In this document: positions 5,456 to 46,155 of the stretch, piece by piece | How positions within the stretch are numbered: position 1 is the first letter of the stretch | How the letters are laid out: every line of letters starts with the position of its first letter | Translations under genes and position numbers: made by a program | Notes under the pieces: generated by a model | What the model was told of the DNA's origin: nothing | Database searches by the model: none | Seen by the model: only the letters and a program-made list of their open reading frames with translations | Origin: an uncultured Candidatus Saccharibacteria bacterium | GTDB taxonomy: Bacteria; Patescibacteriota; Saccharimonadia; Saccharimonadales; Saccharimonadaceae | Reading direction: 5' to 3' | Length of the DNA: 64,000 nt | Assembly: GCA_937898545.1 (NCBI GenBank) | Contig: CALEJV010000003.1 | Location: forward strand, 253,193-317,192

Positions 5456-6766
5456 TTACATACGGTCACTAACGTGTGCCAGTACGCGGGTTGCTGCCTG
5501 GGCTCCGCTTACTGCAGCACCCTCGAGGTGGGGCGCTTTCATATAGTCTCCGGCAAGAAAGACACCTGATGGGAGTCCATCTTCAAATCGTGCAGCAGTT
5601 GTTCGTGTAACGCTGCCGACATCAAATACTGGAATTGCAGTATCCCATCGCACGACGTCTACCACCTCACCACGACGCGCAGCGTCAGCTACGGGTGGCA
5701 AGTTCATTCTAGTCAGCTGGTTGACAAGTTCTCGCTGGAGATGCTGCTGTTCTAGGCTACCTTGCGCCCGCCAATAGAATCGAATATATGCATGCTTACT
5801 CTTTGCCTGAATTACCTTAATTGCGACAAGTGGTGTGACATACTCACTTGAAATGACGATCGTTCGATTGCCAACGCCAAGGTCATCAGAAACGGATGTT
5901 TTAATTATGCCGACTGTGACTGAACTATAGTCAATTGCTTTCAGACTTTTGCTGCAATGCAGACCGCCGTCTGTCAGGATACGAATTGCATTTCGTGCAG
6001 GTGATGCGACAACAACAGATTTAGCGCTAAATGTACCTTGTGATGTATCGACCCGATAGAGGTGGTGGCTTTCAGCACGGACTGCATCAACCTGTGCATT
6101 TAATACATGAGGTACCTTATCGCCGATTGCGGATGGCAGACTACTCATTCCGAAAGGTAGACGATAGAAATGCCGGTCTTCCATGACGCCCTTAATAATT
6201 GGAGGTACCAATCCGCGTGATGTATGTGCACAATCCCAGAAGAATAGTGCGCGCACCATTGGTTCGAGCACATTTTGGTAGGCCTCTTTCCCAAACGCCT
6301 TTTCTCCCCATGTTACAACGGTTTCATTATCAAATCGTTTTAATTCGCGCGTAATAGCTGGTGTTGTCAGCCGCTTCGCATCAAAGAGCATAGAAACGAC
6401 TCCGCGTAGTGCGCGTAACTTGCCAGCGCGAGATAACGACGGCGAGGCTTTGAGTGCGCTCAACGGCCAAATTGGGCCAAGCGGCTTCGTAGGACGATAG
6501 AGCCATGTCTCTTGGCTGTCCTTCTGAGAGGAAGCATCCATACCGCAATCTTTGACGAGTTTGTGGGCAGTCTCATAAAAACCAGCAAGAAATGATGCAC
6601 CGGTTTCGATAGTGACATCTTCATCATAGAAAGACCGTATGCGTCCGCCAAGACGGTCATTCTTTTCGAGTACTTTGACGTGTAACCCACTATCTGTGAG
6701 ATGTGCTGCGCAGGTTAATCCTGCCATGCCTCCGCCAATGATGATGCAGTCGTAGGGTGTGTTCAT
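5456..6766 (-). CDS. FAD-dependent oxidoreductase (amine oxidase / protoporphyrinogen oxidase-like)
   Basis: N-terminal Rossmann IIIGGGMAGL...VLEKNDRLGGR, ETGASF, and C-terminal FLAGDY...LEGAAVSG. Confidence 0.85.
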   Translation of the reverse strand: MNTPYDCIIIGGGMAGLTCAAHLTDSGLHVKVLEKNDRLGGRIRSFYDEDVTIETGASFLAGFYETAHKLVKDCGMDASSQKDSQETWLYRPTKPLGPIWPLSALKASPSLSRAGKLRALRGVVSMLFDAKRLTTPAITRELKRFDNETVVTWGEKAFGKEAYQNVLEPMVRALFFWDCAHTSRGLVPPIIKGVMEDRHFYRLPFGMSSLPSAIGDKVPHVLNAQVDAVRAESHHLYRVDTSQGTFSAKSVVVASPARNAIRILTDGGLHCSKSLKAIDYSSVTVGIIKTSVSDDLGVGNRTIVISSEYVTPLVAIKVIQAKSKHAYIRFYWRAQGSLEQQHLQRELVNQLTRMNLPPVADAARRGEVVDVVRWDTAIPVFDVGSVTRTTAARFEDGLPSGVFLAGDYMKAPHLEGAAVSGAQAATRVLAHVSDRM

Positions 6767-6835
6767 ATATTTATGATATCACTAAGTTTAAATAAGTTAG
6801 TGTAGTATCAGCTATATGTGCGATCAACACACTAA

Positions 6836-7807
6836 CTACTGATACTTCGGCATCTCTACCGTCACTACTTCGCCTTTGCTGAGATCGCGGCATTTGTCGC
6901 CTTCGTAGACTTGCCGTAAGTCGACTTTCTTGGCGTTGCGGAGCTGGACTTTATAGACATCACATGTGAGCATATCGTTTTGGCGGATCTGGAAGAATAC
7001 CCAGCGCCCATCGCTTGATTGATAAAACAACGCTGTCCCTTGCGAATTAAAGAGGTGCGACTCGGGTTGTACACCACCCAGCGGTATCTCTGCTAAGCGA
7101 TAGCCTGCAAGTTTACTCTCGCGCACCGTCATCATGCCGACAATGCCGACGTTATAACTCGAACTTGCAGCAGGCGAGTAGGCATTGTAGAGAGGAGCTT
7201 GCTGCTTGGCGAGGTCTTTGTAATCGGCAGCATCAAGGCATTTAAACTCAACGAAGCGAGTTTCCTTGTTTTTCGGGTCATTTGGGTCAAGTGGGGTATT
7301 GCTAATCTGGCACGTTACGTCGCCATTGCTACGCGTAAAGTCTGCGAGGTACGGGCCGTCTTTATCGCCATCTTGCACGACATAGCGCGTGAATTGATCA
7401 TAGTCGAGCATGTGCTCTAGAGCGGTAACGTTGCGCTTGGCCTCAGCCTTGGGCAGGGTAGCGGCAGCACTCTTAGTTTTGCTTGGGTCGGTAGCAATAG
7501 AATAAAAGCGAGAACCTTCGGCCTTGACCGGTGTTGACAGTGATGACTTAACGGCTTCTGTGCCCTTAAAGTACTTCTTGGCACGCTCGAGCGTCTTGGC
7601 GGCGGTGAGCTGCTCCCGTGGGCCAGTTTTTGCCTCGGTGTGCTGTTCGGTGTTCTTGACTTTGTGTGGCCGAGTTGCGATATAAATAATCCCTGCCGCA
7701 ATAGCAACAACCGCCAAACCAGCCAAAGCAAAGCGGATGGCCAACCCACGCGGTGTTAGGCGTGAGCGTCGATATTGAGGTGAGGAGGATGATCCACTGA
7801 ATAGCAT
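6836..7807 (-). CDS. Membrane-anchored extracellular hypothetical protein
   Basis: Basic N-terminus, one hydrophobic helix (FALAGLAVVAIAAGIIYIA), then a soluble domain with 4 Cys. Start moved to the ATG at 7807 because TATAAT lies 6 nt upstream. Confidence 0.75.
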   Translation of the reverse strand: MLFSGSSSSPQYRRSRLTPRGLAIRFALAGLAVVAIAAGIIYIATRPHKVKNTEQHTEAKTGPREQLTAAKTLERAKKYFKGTEAVKSSLSTPVKAEGSRFYSIATDPSKTKSAAATLPKAEAKRNVTALEHMLDYDQFTRYVVQDGDKDGPYLADFTRSNGDVTCQISNTPLDPNDPKNKETRFVEFKCLDAADYKDLAKQQAPLYNAYSPAASSSYNVGIVGMMTVRESKLAGYRLAEIPLGGVQPESHLFNSQGTALFYQSSDGRWVFFQIRQNDMLTCDVYKVQLRNAKKVDLRQVYEGDKCRDLSKGEVVTVEMPKYQ

Positions 7808-40082: not shown

Positions 40083-40508
40083 ATGGCAAAAAAAGTTATC
40101 GGCAACCTGAAGCTTCGTATTCCAGCTGGCCGTGCCACCGCCGGGCCACCCGTTGGTAGCACACTTGGTCAGTGGGGCTTGAATATGATGGACTTCATCA
40201 ACCCATTCAACGACGCCACCAAGGCAGATATGGGCAAGGACGTCATCGTCCATATCCAAGTGTTTGAGGACCGCACCTTTGCATGGCGCAGCCTCGGCCA
40301 GCCCGTTGATGATATGATCCGTACTGCGATCGGTATCAAGAAGGGCAGTAGCAAGCCACACAGCGACAAGGTTGGGACGATCACCCGAGCACAGCTTGAA
40401 GAGATCGCTCAGGCAAAAATGGAGCAACTCAACGCTATCAGTCTCGAAGGAGCTATCAAGACGGTGGCAGGTACTGCTCGCAGCATGGGCGTGGAAGTCA
40501 CTGACTAA
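40083..40508 (+). CDS. rplK: 50S ribosomal protein L11
   Basis: IPAG.AT.GPPVG..LGQ.G.N.M.F and GTARSMG.EV. Confidence 0.99.
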   Translation: MAKKVIGNLKLRIPAGRATAGPPVGSTLGQWGLNMMDFINPFNDATKADMGKDVIVHIQVFEDRTFAWRSLGQPVDDMIRTAIGIKKGSSKPHSDKVGTITRAQLEEIAQAKMEQLNAISLEGAIKTVAGTARSMGVEVTD

Positions 40509-40525
40509 TCCGCTCGGCGCACATC

Positions 40526-40554
40526 AAAATACCTCTGCTAGCAGAGGTATTTTT
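40526..40554 (+). terminator. Intrinsic terminator after rplK
   Basis: AAAATACCTCTGC...GCAGAGGTATTTT hairpin. Confidence 0.8.
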
Positions 40555-40562
40555 GGTATAAA

Positions 40563-40592
40563 TTGACATATTTTGCAATAGTAGTTTACAAT
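40563..40592 (+). promoter_or_regulatory. Sigma70 promoter giving a leaderless transcript
   Basis: TTGACA (40563-68), 18-nt spacer, TACAAT (40587-92), then 6 nt to the ATG at 40599. Confidence 0.75.
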
Positions 40593-40598
40593 AACAGT

Positions 40599-41138
40599 AT
40601 GCGTAAACTCCTCCTCGACAAAATCTCTATACCAATCCTTATTCTTGGCGTGTTCGTCGTTGCGGCGATTGGCTGGTGGCTATATTATATGACGATCGGC
40701 AGCTTCACAACGACGATCTTCTATGGGCGCTTCGATCACGATGCAATTCGCCATATGGATGTGAGCTATCAGTCGGGGTATGCGATAGACGGCTGGGATG
40801 GCGATAATGGTATGGTTATTGGCACCATCACCGACAAAGCGACGCGCGATCGCTTGCTGAGCATGCAGCCCTTTACTGATTGCCCACACGGTTGCTCGGG
40901 GTGGTATCATTACGGAGACAACCTCCCTCACCCTGAGTCGGTATTTCGAGACACCGCTATCCTTGGTAATCACACTATTCCACCAGAGAAGTTTCGTGAT
41001 CAAGCTCGAGCAGCCATCGGTAGCGACAACCACTGCGTGGCACGCTATTCGTCGAGCCATCGCACCAACGATGTATTTTGCTTCTCACCAAGTAGCGGGG
41101 CGTTTGTCTATGAGTTTGCTGAGTTGAATGGAATGTAG
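40599..41138 (+). CDS. Membrane-anchored Cys-containing surface protein (paralogue of 63546->64000)
   Basis: N-terminal TM helix, then PFTDCPHGCSGW and CVARY motifs. Confidence 0.75.
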   Translation: MRKLLLDKISIPILILGVFVVAAIGWWLYYMTIGSFTTTIFYGRFDHDAIRHMDVSYQSGYAIDGWDGDNGMVIGTITDKATRDRLLSMQPFTDCPHGCSGWYHYGDNLPHPESVFRDTAILGNHTIPPEKFRDQARAAIGSDNHCVARYSSSHRTNDVFCFSPSSGAFVYEFAELNGM

Positions 41139-41241
41139 ATAAATAGCATGCTAGTGTCGGTAAGAACGAGAGAAATACTGCGATATTTAAGGATATAACC
41201 ACCTTCAAATTAAGAAGATATGTAGCACAAGAGGAACGATC

Positions 41242-41751
41242 ATGAGCGCATCATCCACCCGCGTCCAGCAACCACAAAATATGCCAGTGCGTCGCACCAA
41301 GCAGATGGTACGGCTATGGCTAATCTTTGTTATTGTTGCGCTGATATCAGAGGCGATATCATATATAGTCAATTACTCTACGACTCACTACACACGAATA
41401 GATCCAGTTTGGGCAGCTACCGTAATTTTCAGTATAGATGCAGCTTGCTTTGCGGCTGGCATGCTATGGCTTGGCCGTGGTCGTAGGCCTATTTCGCGCA
41501 TCATCTATGGCTCAGCAGCGTTCTTAATGGGCGCATTTGCCTTCCAGGCTGGACATGGATTCATTCCCACCTCAATAACTATAGCACTGAGCTTCCTTGC
41601 CGCGACGCTTGCTACCATTCCTCGCTTTCACGTGCGGCATTACAAGCAGGTAGAGATAGCGATGAGTGTGTTGATTATCGTTGGCGCACTTGGGCTAGCA
41701 TGGGCGTTTCGTATTGTTAGTATGTATCATCCACCTCTGCAGATTCATTGA
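41242..41751 (+). CDS. Integral membrane hypothetical protein
   Basis: About 5 hydrophobic helices; GAGGA SD upstream. Confidence 0.7.
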   Translation: MSASSTRVQQPQNMPVRRTKQMVRLWLIFVIVALISEAISYIVNYSTTHYTRIDPVWAATVIFSIDAACFAAGMLWLGRGRRPISRIIYGSAAFLMGAFAFQAGHGFIPTSITIALSFLAATLATIPRFHVRHYKQVEIAMSVLIIVGALGLAWAFRIVSMYHPPLQIH

Positions 41752-41926
41752 AAAATGGCAACGTATCGACCTAAGGGAAGAGCTGTGACCTATAAGCCTG
41801 CAGAAGTACTTTCACACTTATAGAATAAATATTATCAAGACACACCATACCTCTTAACCTACACGAACCGTTCCAAGCGTTGAGAGTTAAGTAATTAGAA
41901 ATTAGATTGAGTATTGCTCGACAATG

Positions 41927-43483
41927 TCAACGCCTTCTTCGTCGTAGCCACAGGACACCGACCACCAGCACCATTAGCATGATGAACAGCCCGATTGCGA
42001 AACTGGTCACCATTCCCCAGTCGGTGGCACGGTGCACGACGTCGGCAAGAAGGCTGCGCCCGGCACCGGGGGCACTAGCCGTCGTACGCAGTCCCTGTCC
42101 TGAGCGCACGCTGCTGACAAGTTCCTGTGCACCCACCGGCCACTGATGACGCACCACGTGCTCGCTCGCACTACCGAACCCCACGCCGGAGACAGCCACG
42201 CCGAGCACCACGCCGATCTGCCTCATCGCAGCGGACAGCCCAGAGGCCGCACCTGCCTCATCACCCTCGAAGGAGGCGACCGCCAGCTCGTTGACCACGG
42301 TCCCGGCAGCGCCAACCGCGATGCCCGCCAGGATCAGGCCCGGCAGGAGCACTACCCAGGTCGATGAGCCGTACAACAGTACCCATGACATCAGCGCCGC
42401 GCACCCGACGACAAGGATCCCCAGCAGCCTGGCCGACGGCGTCCAGCGCCCATTACCGCCACGAAACAGCCACGCCCCCGCGATGGCACAGAGACTGAAC
42501 GGGAGGAAGCAGAGTCCGACCTGCAGGGGTGAAAACAGGTAGATATTCTGCGCATACAGCGACAGCCAGGGCATCTGCCCCACCAGACCAGCCTGGACGG
42601 CAAAGCCGGTCAGGATACTCACCACATAGAGCCGGTCAGTCAGCAGGCGTCCCGGAACCATAGGTGCGTCCGAGCGCCGCTCGACGGCCATGAACAGCCC
42701 CATCGCGGCCAGTCCGACGGCAACGCCACCGAGCGTGCGCGCGCTAGTCCACCCCCAGGCCGGCCCCTCCAGCAGGACTACTGTCACTGCTCCAACAGCA
42801 AGAATTGCCAGCAATGTCCCAAGCCAATCTACTCCTGAGTTATTACGGTCTGTACTTCGGTCCTTCACGTACCACGACGCCAGCCAAGATGCTACCCCCA
42901 CAGGAACGTTGATCCAAAAGATAGAGCGCCACCCAGCGACTAAGACCAAACCACCGCCTGCCAGTGGCCCCACTGCGATGGCCAACCCTGAGATGAGCCC
43001 GTAAATCCCAGTAGCTCGTGCCCGCTCGCGTCCAGCGGGGTAGTGATCAGAAATCATTGGCACGCCGACGCCCAAGAAGATCGCCCCACCGACCGCCTGA
43101 ATAGCCCGGAAAGCGTTGAGTACAGCCATCGAAGGGGCTAATGCGCACACGGCTGACCCCACCGTGAACAGGACCAGCCCCCATCGGAACAATCGCAGCC
43201 GCCCCAGATTTCTGCTTAGAGTCGCTGCAGACATCAGCAACGCTCCCAACGGTAGTGTGTAGGCGTTAACCACCCATTGCAGCTCACTCTGCGACGCGCC
43301 AAGACTCTGCCCGATATCACCCAGTGCCACCGACACCACCGTGATATCCAGGACGTTCATGAAACTCACCGTGCAGACGAGCACAAGCGCCAGAACGCGA
43401 CTATTTATTAGCCCTGCTACTTTGCGACTACTCGACTCGATTACAGCTCCCATATTCTGTCGATTCACTCTTTGTTCCTCCAC
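41927..43483 (-). CDS. DHA2 (EmrB/QacA-like) 14-TM MFS efflux transporter
   Basis: LDITVV.VAL..I...L, LQWVVNAY.L, G..R.F..GL.LF...S..CA, R..Q..GG, GP..GG.L, WR.IFWINVP.G and DW.G. Confidence 0.95.
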   Translation of the reverse strand: MEEQRVNRQNMGAVIESSSRKVAGLINSRVLALVLVCTVSFMNVLDITVVSVALGDIGQSLGASQSELQWVVNAYTLPLGALLMSAATLSRNLGRLRLFRWGLVLFTVGSAVCALAPSMAVLNAFRAIQAVGGAIFLGVGVPMISDHYPAGRERARATGIYGLISGLAIAVGPLAGGGLVLVAGWRSIFWINVPVGVASWLASWYVKDRSTDRNNSGVDWLGTLLAILAVGAVTVVLLEGPAWGWTSARTLGGVAVGLAAMGLFMAVERRSDAPMVPGRLLTDRLYVVSILTGFAVQAGLVGQMPWLSLYAQNIYLFSPLQVGLCFLPFSLCAIAGAWLFRGGNGRWTPSARLLGILVVGCAALMSWVLLYGSSTWVVLLPGLILAGIAVGAAGTVVNELAVASFEGDEAGAASGLSAAMRQIGVVLGVAVSGVGFGSASEHVVRHQWPVGAQELVSSVRSGQGLRTTASAPGAGRSLLADVVHRATDWGMVTSFAIGLFIMLMVLVVGVLWLRRRRR

Positions 43484-44100
43484 ATCTAGCCGACCGTCAA
43501 CTGATTAGGCCCTGTAGGCCTACCTGAATAATCTTCCCATCCAGTACCACGATCTGTCGATCCACTCCTCGACAGCGTTGAAGTCGGTCGTTAGTAATTC
43601 CTGTATTATATAGATAAAGGTCGTTTCTCGGCCATATTTCTATATAATCATAGAAGATATACCATGTAAAGGCTGTGAGATTGGGATATTGATGCAATCA
43701 TTCCTACATACCATATATTTCTATACTAACCAATAGACATAGCAGCAGCAGTACGAACACAACGTCGGCAGCAATCTCGAGCAATTATTGACAGCATGAG
43801 CCTCAAGATGCGGCGGCTACGGAAGCTGACAAGTAACAGTTGAACACCTTTGCGTGGGAAGTGGTTTTGACCGATAATCTTGTGGCGAGGCTAACATAAA
43901 TGAAAGTGGGTGGCGTCGCATTCACGATAGGGTAGTTGGCTTGCTAAGATGCTACTTTGCTCTACTAATTACACCATAAACTATTCGATGGTATCTCCGA
44001 CTGAGGTAGCAACTATCGGCCACTCAACACTGATCGGCAAAAACGTTATTCCTCGCAATGGTAAGTAGTGCGACAGCTAATAGCAGCCTGGAAGCCTCTC

Positions 44101-44146
44101 GAGACGACGAAGTCACATTGAGCCAACCAAGTGACATCGTCGTCTC
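44101..44146. repeat. Long imperfect inverted repeat
   Basis: GAGACGACGAAGTCAC(A)TTG-AGCCAAC-CAAGTGACATCGTCGTCTC: 16-bp arms with one mismatch, extended by a 3-bp inner stem. Confidence 0.85.
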
Positions 44147-44221
44147 GGTACCAGATGGGTCAGGCTTGCACGGTCTGCCAGATGATGGCCTTCCTGTCCC
44201 AAAACCCAGCAAAAAACAAGC

Positions 44222-44258
44222 AAAAACCCACGTCATGGGGCTTCCATGACGTGGGTTT
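44222..44258 (-). terminator. Terminator downstream of tRNA-Pro
   Basis: AAACCCACGTCATGG / CCATGACGTGGGTTT stem with an A-run on the plus strand (U-tract on the minus strand). Confidence 0.85.
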
Positions 44259-44272
44259 GAGTGTTGACTCAA

Positions 44273-44348
44273 TGGTCGGGGTGACAAGACTTGAACTTGC
44301 GACCTCACGGCCCCCAGCCGTACGCGCTACCAGCTGCGCCACACCCCG
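44273..44348 (-). tRNA. tRNA-Pro(GGG)
   Basis: CGGGGTG acceptor, anticodon arm TACGG-CTGGGGG-CCGTG and encoded CCA. Confidence 0.96.
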
Positions 44349-44483
44349 ACAACGCCTCTCATTATAGCACAATTGGTGACGCGTGCTCAAAAATAGCTAC
44401 TCTGTTATTTTCGCATTGTACAGGTTTATTATCTCATGCTGCAGGACCCATATATGCTATACTAGAAAAGTTAATGAGTAATC

Positions 44484-44512
44484 GTGGGAGGCACCCAAGC
44501 CGCTTGCACCAC
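44484..44512 (+). promoter_or_regulatory. L1-binding autoregulatory operator upstream of rplA
   Basis: GUGG-GAG-GCA...UGC-A-CCAC immediately before the SD, matching the known L1-binding asymmetric loop. Own promoter TG-C-TATACT at 44455-44463. Confidence 0.7.
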
Positions 44513-44524
44513 AGAAAGGATACT

Positions 44525-45505
44525 ATGGCAAAAAAAGCCGATCTGCTTGAAAAAGCAGCAGAGCTGAAACTCGATGTTTCAGAAAAAAATACCATTGCAG
44601 AGATTGAGGCGGCCATCGCTGCAGCAAACGACAAGGATGTCATTGCCCAGCGCGAAGCCACCGTTGCAAAGGCTGGTAAGCGTAGCCAAAAGGCTCTCGA
44701 CGAGGCCGAAGCGAAGGCTGAGAAAGAAGCCCGCAAAGAGGCTGGCGATACAACGCCTCAGGGTGATGTCGATGCAGCTATCAAGAAAGGACCCGCACCG
44801 AAGGTTCGCCCGCTAATTGAGCGCCGCGGCAAGGCCTATCGAAAACTAGCTGAGAAGGTTGAAAAAGATAAGGTGTACTCACTAGACGAAGCACTCCAGC
44901 TTGCGACTGAGACCAATCCTGCTAAGTTTGATGCGAGTGTTGAGCTGCACGTCCGTCTTGGTGTTGATCCACGCCAGGCTGATCAAAATATCCGCTCGAC
45001 AGTTGTCTTGCCACACGGCACAGGCAAGACTGTTCGCGTTGCCGTCTTTGCACCAGAAGCTGAGGTTGCAACTGCTACCAAAGCAGGGGCAGACATTGCT
45101 GGCGAAGAGGCTATCATCAAGCTGCTCGACAAGGGTACGCTAGACTTTGACGTTTTGATCGCCACCCCGCAGTACATGCCAAAGCTTGGTAAATACGCCC
45201 GTCTGCTTGGACCAAAGGGTCTGATGCCTAACCCAAAGAGCGGTACTGTAACAACTGACATTGCAACTGCCGTCACTGAGGCAAAAGCTGGTAAGGTGGA
45301 GTACCGCGTAGACAAGCAAGCCGCGATTCACCTCAGTATCGGCAAGGTAAGCTTTGGTACAGAGAAGCTCCGCGCTAACGCCGATGCCTTCTTCGCTAGC
45401 TTGCAAGCTCAAAAGCCAAGCTCGCTCAAGGGTGTATATGTCAAATCCATCGCAGCTGCAACGACGATGGGACCTGGCATCAAGGTTGAGCACAAACTCG
45501 ACTAG
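44525..45505 (+). CDS. rplA: 50S ribosomal protein L1 with ~95-aa N-terminal extension
   Basis: KFDASVELH.RLG.DPR.ADQ.IR..V.LPHGTGK, LG.YAR.LGPKGLMPNPK.GT and TTMGPGI. SD AGAAAGGA before the ATG at 44525. Confidence 0.97.
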   Translation: MAKKADLLEKAAELKLDVSEKNTIAEIEAAIAAANDKDVIAQREATVAKAGKRSQKALDEAEAKAEKEARKEAGDTTPQGDVDAAIKKGPAPKVRPLIERRGKAYRKLAEKVEKDKVYSLDEALQLATETNPAKFDASVELHVRLGVDPRQADQNIRSTVVLPHGTGKTVRVAVFAPEAEVATATKAGADIAGEEAIIKLLDKGTLDFDVLIATPQYMPKLGKYARLLGPKGLMPNPKSGTVTTDIATAVTEAKAGKVEYRVDKQAAIHLSIGKVSFGTEKLRANADAFFASLQAQKPSSLKGVYVKSIAAATTMGPGIKVEHKLD

Positions 45506-45645: not shown

Positions 45646-46155
45646 ATGAAAAAATATGTCTACTCGCTCGTTGGTAGTGTTGGTTATTTTGAGCGATTTT
45701 TGCAACCGCAGACACCGGAGCAGGTTGCACAAAAGGTGAGCCAGGCTATTGCCGACCCAACTGTCCTTGATGGCAACCGCTGCTTTAGTATCTGCGTGTG
45801 GGCCTTGCCAGATGGTATTGACCATCCAAAGAATGTACCAAAGGATAGCTTGGCTGATGGTTACTATATGCAATGTGCTGGGTCGAATACCGGCATGACT
45901 ATAGAAGTGCGCGTACCAGATCCAGACAATCATACAGCCCAGTATCCATATATCCACTATGTGATTACCCGAAAGCCAGTGGCTGATAAAGAGCGATTCG
46001 TTCCACTCACCTGGCAGCGCGATAACGAACCATTTACGATACGCATTCATCCAGAAGAGGTATTTACTGGAGAACAAGCTGGGCAGATCTTTGCAGATTA
46101 TATTACAAAGGGCAGTATACCGTCTGAATCTGTTTTACGAAAGATTGATATATAG
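45646..46155 (+). CDS. Hypothetical protein
   Basis: 169-aa ORF with GGAGGT SD; YMQCAGS...MTIEVR...HYV and EVFT.E.A..F..Y...G.IP pattern. Confidence 0.75.
   Translation: MKKYVYSLVGSVGYFERFLQPQTPEQVAQKVSQAIADPTVLDGNRCFSICVWALPDGIDHPKNVPKDSLADGYYMQCAGSNTGMTIEVRVPDPDNHTAQYPYIHYVITRKPVADKERFVPLTWQRDNEPFTIRIHPEEVFTGEQAGQIFADYITKGSIPSESVLRKIDI

Follow-up and report, generated by a model that had tools for sequence, protein, structure and literature searches.

The window, that is, the whole stretch of 64,000 nucleotides that was analyzed, comes from a Saccharibacteria genome and holds an insert of about 2.5 kb between rplK and rplA, one border of which coincides exactly with the 3' end of tRNA-Pro(GGG). 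The main gene of the insert is predicted to encode an efflux pump of the MFS type. The features of the locus and the evidence from which each was called are the following:

41242-41751, plus strand: ORF169, coding for an orphan membrane protein and convergent with the MFS gene (ORF and genome comparison)
41752-41926, no strand: AT-rich (GC 0.39) distal end of the insert, from the MFS stop to ORF169 (genome comparison)
41924-43539, minus strand: core segment homologous to the Rothia copy, probably actinobacterium-derived DNA (blastn)
41927-43483, minus strand: MFS efflux gene, predicted DHA2-type 14-TMS drug:H+ antiporter (profiles, fold, motifs)
42778-42859, minus strand: AT-shifted patch in the MFS gene, TM6-TM7 loop and start of TM7 (sequence comparison)
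43470-43539, minus strand: stub of the gene that lay upstream in the donor, with the final ~25 codons of an AMP-ligase-like ORF (Rothia homology)
43715-43821, no strand: decayed remnant of the VbhA gene region of a fuller island (71% identity to L272 4563-4670)
44085-44225, plus strand: tail of a large serine recombinase gene, a remnant within ORF 44058-44249 (tblastn)
44224-44258, minus strand: terminator hairpin with a 15-bp stem, immediately after tRNA-Pro
44273-44348, minus strand: tRNA-Pro(GGG), whose 3' end is the insert junction

The extent of the insert is given by the empty site of a sister species (G007), where 116 bp stand in place of window positions 41754-44270; a preliminary description had put the islet at 41760-44260, close to these limits. 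The distal end (41752-41926) is missing in G007 and in two other genomes (G009, G024). Beyond it, ORF169 has no match in Pfam or NCBIfam and is native to the subclade, being found at empty sites also. At the other border, the terminator hairpin is shared with a neighboring Saccharibacteria lineage (L001/L002) and differs in G007, so it is assigned to the insert. An Rfam scan of 40400-44700 returned nothing besides the tRNA. The rplK-rplA interval of the Saccharibacteria chromosome is variable. That the insert is an artifact, with actinobacterial reads fused into a Saccharibacteria contig during assembly or binning, is so improbable as to be practically negligible. Two assemblies (G001 and G026) do break within the MFS gene, but identical junctions with rplK, ORF169, tRNA-Pro and rplA are present in the 379-kb contig of the window genome, in G015 and in G012, and they come back in six or more independently made metagenome assemblies, one of them with a 364-kb scaffold. 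Moreover, the gene has an intermediate GC3, and its identity reaches only 90% with the closest copy from actinobacteria.

The composition of the pump gene is atypical for its genome (1.05 Mb, GC 0.521, sd 0.042 over gene-sized windows). With a GC of 0.617, the ORF at 41927-43483 lies at z = 2.3, in the top 0.7% of such windows, and its GC3 is 0.68, the genome GC3 being 0.587 +/- 0.088. The 500-bp bin at 42001-42500 (GC 0.676) is the maximum within the 64-kb window, and the insert flanks are AT-richer (GC 0.39 at 41754-41926 and 0.46 at 43484-44272). The hand counts of GC on which the preliminary description had relied are exact, namely 44/60 at 42421-42480, 43/60 at 42661-42720, 34/60 at 2401-2460, a line that does belong to rpoC (TIGR02386, 1399 bits), and 23/60 in the flank at 41821-41880. 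It was also right that the gene lies 3' of tRNA-Pro(GGG) and that its surroundings are AT-rich. The same description took these surroundings to be non-coding, which needs correction: the spacer is the wreck of a recombinase/VbhA module together with the stub of a gene that adjoined the pump in the putative donor.

The former content of the spacer can be read from fuller copies of the insert. G001 and L272-L277 have 2.4 kb where the window has 43676-44083, and these encode a large serine recombinase, VbhA (the Pfam match was found in L272) and a 144-aa coiled-coil ORF. Only a tail of about 47 codons of the recombinase is left in the window, at 44085-44225, where residues 305-351 of the L272 protein match at 81% in tblastn, and the remainder is deleted. 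Most copies of the recombinase are truncated at the N-terminus; the L272 copy has 397 aa and lacks a Resolvase domain, and a full-length form of 622 aa occurs in P0274, on a short contig. Compared with phage genomes, the recombinase matched serine integrases of mycobacteriophages and of Firmicutes phages at no more than 22-25%, which says little about where it came from. Neither a repeat search of 41500-44500 nor a search with the tRNA 3'-end motif found credible att-type direct repeats at the insert borders, and recombinase-mediated entry is for this reason not demonstrated.

The pump gene itself has an intact reading frame. From the first GTG it would encode 518 aa, and translation probably begins at the GTG at 43468 (513 aa), with GGAGGA 8 nt before it and the same start called in other assemblies. 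A sigma-70 promoter scan found no consensus upstream of the gene, and a good promoter for the tRNA only. The protein matches Pfam MFS_1 (PF07690; 3.8e-41, 141.6 bits vs a cutoff of 33.4). The best-scoring curated model is TIGR00711 (DHA2/EmrB; 2.5e-56), whose score of 191.4 bits is below the cutoff of 230.2, so by that yardstick the protein is a divergent DHA2 member. The NCBIfam models for named pumps (QepA, LfrA, TcmA, Lmr(A), Tcr3/OtrB/Tet, FexA/B, QacA/B and EmrB) all score far under their cutoffs, the highest among the named resistance-pump models being TcmA with 135 bits vs a cutoff of 999. From these profile scores, annotation as any specific antibiotic-resistance gene appears unwarranted and should not be made. 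In the AF2 model (pLDDT 88.8), 14 long helices are seen, among them the extra central pair and, at the C-terminus, TM14. A fold search of the PDB with this model gave 366 matches at E<=0.001, and the best 50 of the 366 are MFS-fold transporters; the 14-TMS proteins EfpA, EmrB, QacA, an Rv1410 homologue and NorC match best, with TM scores of 0.73-0.80 for EfpA, EmrB and QacA, and the 12-TMS MdfA and NorA rank lower. The closest solved relatives are EfpA, EmrB, NorC and QacA. Invariant in 34 aligned homologues are D41, which we take to be the membrane-embedded acidic residue of TM1; R121, presumably the motif B arginine of TM4, with Q124 and G127; and G167, P168, G171 and G172, presumably the antiporter motif C (G-P-x-x-G-G) of TM5. 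Judged from sequence and model, the product is a predicted DHA2 efflux-type pump with 14 helices; profiles, solved relatives and fold matches agree with the drug-efflux MFS proposed earlier.

The relatives of the gene point to Actinomycetota. The core segment, compared by blastn, is 90.2% identical to Rothia over 1618 nt and 78.8% identical to Actinomycetaceae sp. (window 41943-43394), and protein identities are 91% (Rothia), 82% (Actinomycetaceae sp.), 75% (A. timonensis) and 55% (A. oris group). A careful ML protein tree gives the nesting (A. oris group, (A. timonensis, (Actinomycetaceae sp., (Saccharibacteria + Rothia)))). The nodes around the window clade are starred, save the join with Actinomycetaceae sp. 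(94/85); A. timonensis joins in an 8-row clade and the A. oris group in a 14-row clade, each with support of 100/100. MFS homologues of CPR type are 25-31% identical to the window protein (about 29%) and sit in the other half of the tree, and a quick tree is concordant. The preliminary description had held that a vertically inherited CPR clade made up of the closest homologues would speak against an actinobacterial donor; the CPR genes lie on the far side of the tree, and the donor that it proposed is upheld by the nesting. An origin of the gene in oral Actinomycetota is strongly supported by these comparisons. The identity of the carriers was read from their sequences: an A. oris genome contains a 98% match to P0009, the carrier of WP_017177637 is A. 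timonensis, contig P0002 has a GC of 0.70 and a YchF 87% identical to that of A. massiliensis, and the context of the Rothia copy includes a Na/H exchanger 88% identical to that of R. aeria. Gene neighborhoods differ among carriers, with a PIN/PhdYeFM toxin-antitoxin in A. timonensis and a TetR/RibD_C block in Rothia. No AMP-ligase adjoins the pump in the A. oris and A. timonensis neighborhoods, and the 161-aa ORF downstream in A. timonensis has no homology to Rothia u160 or window ORF169b. Around the copy on contig P0015 (locus L093, A. oris-group clade) lie genes for a transposase, a PPTase and a thioesterase, which is little informative at 55% identity.

Which actinobacterium gave the gene is a separate matter. 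The preliminary description proposed the host as donor, and the nearest copy, in Rothia, lends this no support. It may have come from a non-host donor, as DNA of a plaque neighbor such as Rothia taken up by competence, in which case the islet would be silent on the identity of the host; we regard this as a serious, though tentative, possibility. The nearest copies outside Saccharibacteria are indeed those of Rothia (91% at the amino acid and 90% at the nucleotide level), seen in six independent assemblies. Natural competence of Saccharibacteria is described in one paper (PMC10633639), and Rothia is not mentioned in the available parts of two papers on host cultivation (PMC7651992, PMC9040727). 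However, the deeper relatives (82%, 75% and 55%) all belong to Actinomycetaceae, the family of known oral hosts, and a second gene of Actinomyces/Schaalia/Rothia type lies at a distance of 1.3 kb. Moreover, the gene is an accessory insert in Rothia too, being missing from R. aeria, so an unsampled member of Actinomycetaceae may have donated the gene both to Rothia and to Saccharibacteria.

The direction of transfer can be argued from the ends of the shared segment. In Rothia, the bases that correspond to the stub are the end of an ORF of 125-266 aa upstream of the MFS gene; over 79 aa, its tail shares 44% identity with the ORF that precedes the gene in Actinomycetaceae sp., and the Rothia ORF has a weak Pfam match to AMP-dom_DIP2-like. 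Saccharibacteria keep about 70-86 nt of this AMP-ligase-like ORF and Rothia at least 390 nt. The stub at 43470-43539 is now closed by a stop (reading ...LDGKIIQVGLQGLIS and then the stop), and in a protein-level search of the spacer for further parts of the AMP-ligase gene, homology ended after about 25 codons. Downstream, the Saccharibacteria segment lacks the last 21 codons relative to Rothia. Because the Saccharibacteria segment is shorter than that of Rothia at both ends and keeps a stub of the donor gene, the direction of transfer is shown to be from Actinobacteria to Saccharibacteria. GC3 declines along the proposed path (0.91, 0.78, 0.72, 0.68), the genome mean being 0.587.

The opposite course, in which an ancient MFS gene native to Saccharibacteria was exported to Rothia and Actinomycetaceae, is highly improbable and already disfavored. 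It draws on the nucleotide tree, where the Saccharibacteria copies are paraphyletic to Rothia (89/90), but this signal comes largely from one divergent patch. The patch (42778-42859) holds 35 differences from both L272 and Rothia inside one 150-nt bin and is common to the window, G015 and L001/L002; without it, Rothia and two Saccharibacteria groups form a trichotomy. AU tests on the monophyly of the Saccharibacteria copies (p-AU 0.08 and 0.13) neither show nor reject it. The tree thus cannot order Rothia and the Saccharibacteria groups, and direction is argued from the end truncations instead. An export is further opposed by the three successive outgroups, all Actinomycetaceae; by the GC of the gene, far over that of the genome; by the truncation of both ends relative to Rothia and the upstream ORF common to Rothia and Actinomycetaceae sp.; and by the lack of the gene in 32 of the genus's 37 species and throughout the other genera of the order. 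Taken together, a gain from oral Actinomycetota by a lineage of oral Saccharibacteria of an intact gene for a predicted EfpA/QacA-like DHA2 pump is considered likely. The preliminary description had called the acquisition recent, which finds no support: at a dS of 0.16-0.24, the separation from the nearest copy in actinobacteria is of roughly the same age as the divergence of the carrier species.

A check across strains, also proposed at the outset, finds the gene in 5 of the 37 species of the genus (once truncated) and in none of the 24 other genera of the order. Such a distribution might be expected of a decaying passenger of a mobile element that brings no benefit to the epibiont and is being lost, and the gene is missing in five of the ten species of the subclade, the G012 copy has lost window 42348-43502, the recombinase module is eroded and the promoter scan found no consensus. 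This alternative is nevertheless quite improbable, since the window, G015, L001, L002 and L272-L277 all have an intact frame, the conserved pump motifs are all retained, and dN/dS is low (0.16-0.22 overall; 0.158-0.173 among Saccharibacteria copies, at dS 0.03-0.19), from which it follows that the gene is maintained by purifying selection. The gene has also been imported again. The G015 copy is a re-import, with 98% identity in the MFS gene vs 88-92% in the flanks. In L001/L002, a 3.1 kb piece (window 41256-44272) is 96.6% identical to the window, vs 67-73% in the flanks outside it and 79% for RpoC. The comparison of these genomes shows that the piece was passed on to another Saccharibacteria lineage, together with ORF169. 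It adjoins tRNA-Pro(TGG) there, and the shared sequence starts directly after ...CACCCCGACCA of the two tRNA-Pro genes, GGG and TGG.

A broader reading would be a standing channel between phyla, through which high-GC serine-recombinase elements of actinobacterial type enter oral Saccharibacteria at the 3' ends of tRNA-Pro genes. It seems unlikely, as does the part of it in which such elements would bring cargo from the host phylum and then spread among Saccharibacteria genera. Three observations point to it: the Actinomyces/Rothia-type gene near the MFS gene; another high-GC block in the genome, with an intact serine recombinase, a replication-relaxation protein and a TrwB-like coupling protein; and the named relatives of the recombinase, which are mostly from Actinomycetota. 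If the channel exists, island cargo could reveal host history, and the recombinases might serve as genetic tools for CPR bacteria.

For the MFS gene, the favored reading remains a gain from oral Actinomycetota, and its course may be pictured as follows. The home of the gene family is Actinomycetaceae, where, as in Rothia, the pump can stand directly behind an AMP-ligase-like gene. A fragment of about 1.6 kb, with the pump gene and the last ~25 codons of its neighbor, would have entered the rplK-rplA interval, and the insert would also have brought the large serine recombinase, the VbhA antitoxin gene and the coiled-coil ORF. The DNA may have come in by natural competence, by way of the recombinase element, or both. 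The recombinase module has been worn down to remnants in the window genome, leaving a mosaic of decay. As a candidate function, the pump might use proton antiport to expel a toxic compound of amphipathic nature; given that the pump was ancestrally linked to an adenylating enzyme, a metabolite of Actinomycetaceae is a possible substrate. The host-made antimicrobial suggested in the preliminary description would be a speculative candidate. A benefit that is only conditional could account for the patchy presence of the gene.

Oral Saccharibacteria attach to Actinomycetota and live there. Two genome studies stress a lack of evidence for transfer from host to epibiont (PMC7427843, PMC8406219). The MFS locus is a clean counter-example, as DNA of the host phylum has entered 1-Mb genomes in a direction fixed by the stub of a neighbor gene, and was then kept under selection, lost in sister species and handed between Saccharibacteria lineages. 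The transfer is otherwise ordinary, well documented in a group where transfers are reported as hard to find. It also offers a candidate trait of the epibiont-host interface, tolerance to an actinobacterial or other toxic compound, which is testable since cultivable Saccharibacteria can be engineered by natural transformation.

Among known systems, EfpA of M. tuberculosis and M. smegmatis (PDB 8ufd, 8x6x, 8ufe, 9bii) is the closest solved sequence (E 1.7e-40, residues 29-431). Both are actinobacterial-type pumps of the DHA2/QacA family with 14 helices (TM 0.73-0.79). However, identity is only 25-26%, and EfpA is a core, essential mycobacterial gene, whereas the gene described here is a mobile accessory one, known from sequence and model. 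The 14-TMS fold (TM 0.80 for QacA), D41, the motif B arginine and GP..GG are shared with QacA, EmrB and NorC, but identity to these is 19-21% and the MFS protein has no adaptor partner of EmrAB type. WP_017177637.1 of A. timonensis and its relatives in oral Actinomycetaceae and Rothia form one orthologous group with the window protein (full-length identities of 75%, 82% and 91%), although the genomic context differs from those in A. timonensis and Rothia. Like tRNA-linked genomic islands and serine-recombinase integrative elements, the insert borders on the final bases of a tRNA gene, is missing from the corresponding site of a relative, has an atypical composition and, in fuller copies, a recombinase beside the junction, and the same cargo is found in another lineage at a second tRNA-Pro isoacceptor. 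Unlike in these, no flanking direct repeats were found, and the recombinase is a remnant in the window. Since the piece moved into L001/L002 contains the native ORF169, recombination of a larger fragment fits better than clean excision and integration. Horizontal transfer has been reported for an arginine deiminase system in mammal-associated Saccharibacteria (PMC8764695) and for multidrug ABC transporters in groundwater Patescibacteria (PMC12455944). The present case resembles these in that a streamlined epibiont gains an accessory function across phyla, with cargo typical in being for transport or defense. It differs in that the probable donor lineage belongs to the phylum of the host and in that the direction of transfer is documented by a stub of the donor gene.

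The sole long ORF of the stretch flagged beside tRNA-Pro(GGG) encodes a 518-aa protein, hereafter the pump, and is placed between rplK and rplA, so that the usual secE-nusG-rplK-rplA array is interrupted:

40083-40508, rplK
41927-43483, minus strand, pump
44273-44348, minus strand (same strand as the pump), tRNA-Pro(GGG), with its own promoter-like site and a 15-bp-stem terminator
up to 45505, rplA

The GC counts of the preliminary description (44/60 and 43/60 in the gene, 34/60 in a comparison line at 2401-2460, which does fall within rpoC, and 23/60 in the flank) were reproduced exactly, and the bin 42001-42500 reaches 0.676, the maximum of the entire 64-kb window. The pump ORF has a GC of 0.617 and a GC3 of 0.68 (genome mean GC3, 0.587); relative to gene-sized windows of the genome (1.05 Mb, 8 contigs, GC 0.521) its GC z is 2.3, and only 0.7% of windows are equally GC-rich. 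Translation probably starts at the GTG at 43468, which follows GGAGGA by 8 nt and gives the 513-aa form picked by gene callers in other assemblies. Pfam MFS_1 matches the protein at 3.8e-41, and the top NCBIfam model is TIGR00711 (DHA2/EmrB family; 2.5e-56, under its curated cutoff); against the NCBIfam models of named resistance pumps (TcmA, LfrA, QepA, Lmr, Tet, Fex, Qac), it scores far under every cutoff. The closest solved relative by sequence is mycobacterial EfpA (1.7e-40), ahead of EmrB, NorC and QacA, and these same 14-helix pumps are the top fold matches (TM 0.73-0.80, 12-helix pumps behind) of an AlphaFold model built with 34 homologues (pLDDT 88.8, pTM 0.88, 14 long helices). Invariant in the family alignment are D41 (TM1), R121/Q124/G127 and G167-P168..G171-G172, which we equate, in that order, with the acidic residue for proton coupling in DHA-type pumps, their motif B and their antiporter motif C.

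The gene had been placed amid AT-rich non-coding DNA; the AT-richness stands, but the non-coding label does not. In the sister species G007, homology to the window's flanks extends to 41753 and resumes at 44271, and the 116 bp in between are unrelated, which makes this an empty site. The same site contains 721 bp of other filler in G009 and yet different content in G024, and G012 lacks window 42348-43502, the first 376 pump codons. In G001 and six metagenome assemblies (L272-L277), window 43676-44083 is replaced by 2.4 kb containing:

144-aa coiled-coil ORF
VbhA antitoxin gene
large serine recombinase gene, abutting the tRNA

This recombinase is without its Resolvase domain (397 aa) or split in two; a full-length form of 622 aa with all three domains, P0274, comes from a short contig and matches 78% of the query at 98% identity, and the named relatives (40-46%) are mostly Actinomycetota (Leucobacter, Mycetocola, Brevibacterium, Propionibacterium, Gordonia). 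The window keeps two pieces of the module:

43715-43821, VbhA-region trace, 71% identical
44085-44225, recombinase tail, 81%

Thus the DNA around the pump is a wrecked mobile module plus a donor-gene stub. No att-like direct repeats were found at the insert.

Among 60 related genomes compared, a close copy of the pump is confined to five species, all of the same genus:

window's own genome
G015, 98%
G001 and G026, 97-98%, split across contig ends
G012, 141-codon remnant only

The remaining 32 species of the genus, like all 24 further genera of the order, hold at most MFS genes 22-34% identical to it, and the window's genome also has a copy of this native type on a different contig. In a large protein collection, the relatives outside the genus were clusters P0001 (1361 members), P0002 and P0003, which are 91%, 82% and 75% identical to the pump, then a group at 50-56% and, at about 41%, MAG proteins with Mycobacteriaceae and Propionibacteriaceae labels; Streptomyces and others (33-38%) came from a genome-collection scan. 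Carriers of the 50-56% group resemble Actinomyces oris (P0009 matches a gene of A. oris CCUG 34288 at 98% identity), and P0003 includes WP_017177637.1 of Actinomyces timonensis, which has a normal chromosomal neighbourhood on a 1.43-Mb contig. P0002 contigs have a GC of 0.65-0.72, with the gene adjoining ispH, xseA and ychF; the carrier's YchF shares 87% identity with the A. massiliensis protein, which makes the carrier an Actinomycetaceae. P0001 is mixed: members of 513 aa are Saccharibacteria in an rplK-rplA context, and those of 529 aa lie on a Rothia chromosome in six independent assemblies. The Na/H exchanger of the Rothia carrier is 88% identical to that of R. aeria and its neighbours are syntenic with R. 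aeria; the pump sits in an accessory block of about 4.1 kb, also containing TetR and a RibD_C gene, that was absent from the R. aeria reference in the synteny comparison. Short-read assemblies of G001 (C14/C2) and G026 (C7/C26) both break within the MFS gene, likely because copies about 90% identical from Rothia or Actinomycetaceae in the same samples tangle the assembly graph, and MAG surveys could therefore undercount the gene.

In a careful maximum-likelihood tree of 45 proteins, the sequences nest as (A. oris group, (A. timonensis, (Actinomycetaceae sp., (two Saccharibacteria groups + Rothia)))), with 99-100% support for the enclosing nodes except the join of Actinomycetaceae sp. (94/85). 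Homologues from the CPR order and the window's native MFS occupy the opposite half, and a quick tree was concordant, so the pump does not belong to a vertically inherited CPR clade. Within the innermost group, a nucleotide tree joined Rothia with the window group (89/90), but Saccharibacteria monophyly was not rejected (p-AU 0.08), and removal of one aberrant patch left a trichotomy (p-AU 0.13); the order of Rothia and the two Saccharibacteria groups is beyond the reach of the gene tree. The patch, about 80 nt at 42778-42859 on the minus strand (TM6-TM7 loop and start of TM7), has clustered G/C-to-A/T changes, with 35 differences from both the L272 and Rothia copies in one 150-nt bin, and is common to the window, G015 and two MAGs of a neighbouring Saccharibacteria lineage (L001, L002). 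It distorts the gene tree, and could come from gene conversion by an unsampled lower-GC allele or from local relaxed constraint.

The direction of transfer is better read from the ends of the homology, which spans 41924 to 43539 between the window and Rothia (90.2%). Its last 70-86 nt at the upstream end are, in Rothia, the 3' end of a 125-266-aa ORF whose tail reads ...GRIKDMMIVRGKNYFPNDIE...SGKIVRTGLEDLIS and resembles what we take to be the C-terminal domain of an adenylate-forming enzyme; Pfam AMP-dom_DIP2-like matches it weakly, and it is 44% identical over 79 aa to the ORF directly before the pump in Actinomycetaceae sp. Saccharibacteria retain only about 25 codons of this ORF, closed by a stop (...LDGKIIQVGLQGLIS*), and downstream their pump ORF stops at the homology border, where that of Rothia is 21 codons longer. 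The longer copy cannot derive from one that is truncated at either end relative to it, so transfer ran from Actinomycetota into Saccharibacteria. GC3 declines along the same path, from 0.91 (A. timonensis type) through 0.78 (Actinomycetaceae sp.) and 0.72 (Rothia and L272-type Saccharibacteria) to 0.68 (window). The source is either a Rothia-like donor or an Actinomycetaceae donor common to Rothia and Saccharibacteria. In Rothia, the ORF upstream of the pump (L278 5238-5989, L280 5237-5989, L282 985-1785) is itself a chimera, in which a native N-terminal part of about 117 aa (53% identical to R. aeria) is fused to about 130 aa of AMP-ligase-like C-terminal domain; frameshift-split in some assemblies, it marks the left junction of the Rothia insert.

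The proposal of an actinobacterial donor is thus borne out by nesting and end truncations, but that of a recent acquisition is not. dS between the pump and the Rothia copy is 0.16-0.24, and the window and L272 type differ by a dS of 0.185 with flanks about 6% apart, so entry dates to about the time when the carrier species radiated. The deeper relatives of the pump are Actinomycetaceae, the host family, and the term Rothia has a count of 0 in the available text of two host-cultivation papers (PMC7651992, PMC9040727); the donor may be either host or neighbour. Saccharibacteria are naturally competent (PMC10633639), which offers a route for DNA of both. Concerning use, the frame is intact in at least 10 independent copies, motifs are conserved in the family alignment, and dN/dS is 0.158-0.173 among Saccharibacteria copies (0.13-0.22 over all pairs). 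Against use, the pump is truncated in one species and absent from half of a 10-species subclade; a promoter scan found no consensus promoter for it. The conclusion drawn from these sequence data is a predicted role as a conditionally useful accessory pump.

Later movement among Saccharibacteria is also visible. L001 and L002 hold window 41256-44272 at 96.6% (pump alone, 98-99%), whereas their flanks are merely 67-73% identical to the window's genome and the RpoC of L002's genome is 79% identical, compared with 84-85% within the genus. This hop is younger (dS 0.034). There the segment is joined to another tRNA gene, tRNA-Pro(TGG), syntenic with the window genome's own tRNA-Pro(TGG) on a different contig, and shared sequence starts directly after the common 3' end ...CACCCCGACCA. 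Since the moved piece includes the native neighbour ORF169 (41242-41751, plus strand), recombination of a larger fragment via the tRNA end fits better than clean excision of an element. A 155-bp stretch (L001 5232-5386 vs the window genome's C5:166680-166834), 97% identical in surroundings of about 70%, borders the variable region downstream of tRNA-Pro(TGG) on its far side, and in the window's genome an ABC ATPase and an M50 peptidase-like ORF lie in that region. The stretch is possibly a further shared border of mobile DNA. G015, whose pump is 98% identical to the window's with flanks at 88-92%, shows a re-import. The tRNA-Pro and its 3' cargo are inverted in the carrier subclade relative to G019, G014 and G021 of the same genus, where small unrelated ORFs occupy 4-5 kb of the rplK-rplA interval; elsewhere in the genus (L269, L270, L271), tRNA-Pro(GGG) directly follows rplK on the same strand (compare window 40509-44348). 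With such varied content, the interval is a general hot spot, and the ribosomal-protein array is split by an accessory region genus-wide.

Shortly after rplA, a 169-aa ORF (45646-46155, plus strand) without a Pfam match is confined to the same 10-species subclade (10/61 genomes); beyond the subclade, every relative, at 39-48%, comes from Actinomyces, Schaalia or Rothia (NCBI name 'NTP pyrophosphohydrolase'), and the Rothia homologue (43%) has the MFS block on one side and tRNA-Pro(CGG) on the other. The ORF probably entered in a second, earlier transfer out of the same donor phylum. Elsewhere in the window's genome, at the end of a contig, lies a high-GC block (GC 0.63-0.70; C6:20684-26609, L296 3685-9610) that contains:

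intact 688-aa large serine recombinase, 39% identical to the remnant beside the MFS
Replic_Relax protein
TrwB-like coupling ATPase

The block resembles an actinomycete-type integrative conjugative element that lies within a Saccharibacteria contig or is joined to one. Another large serine recombinase (664 aa, GC 0.63) lies at C8:43550-45544 (L297 3551-5545), a third recombinase-like stretch in a high-GC patch at C3:128446-129247, and additional high-GC patches at C5:1-1220 and 5600-7800.

Horizontal transfer into Saccharibacteria and other Patescibacteria, transporters included, is known (PMC8764695, PMC12455944). McLean et al. reported no strong sign of Actinomyces genes transferred into TM7x (PMC7427843), and according to Jaffe et al. 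evidence for transfer between profiled pairs is lacking (PMC8406219). The pump locus is a clear positive case of such transfer, yet one that concerns a single accessory transporter.
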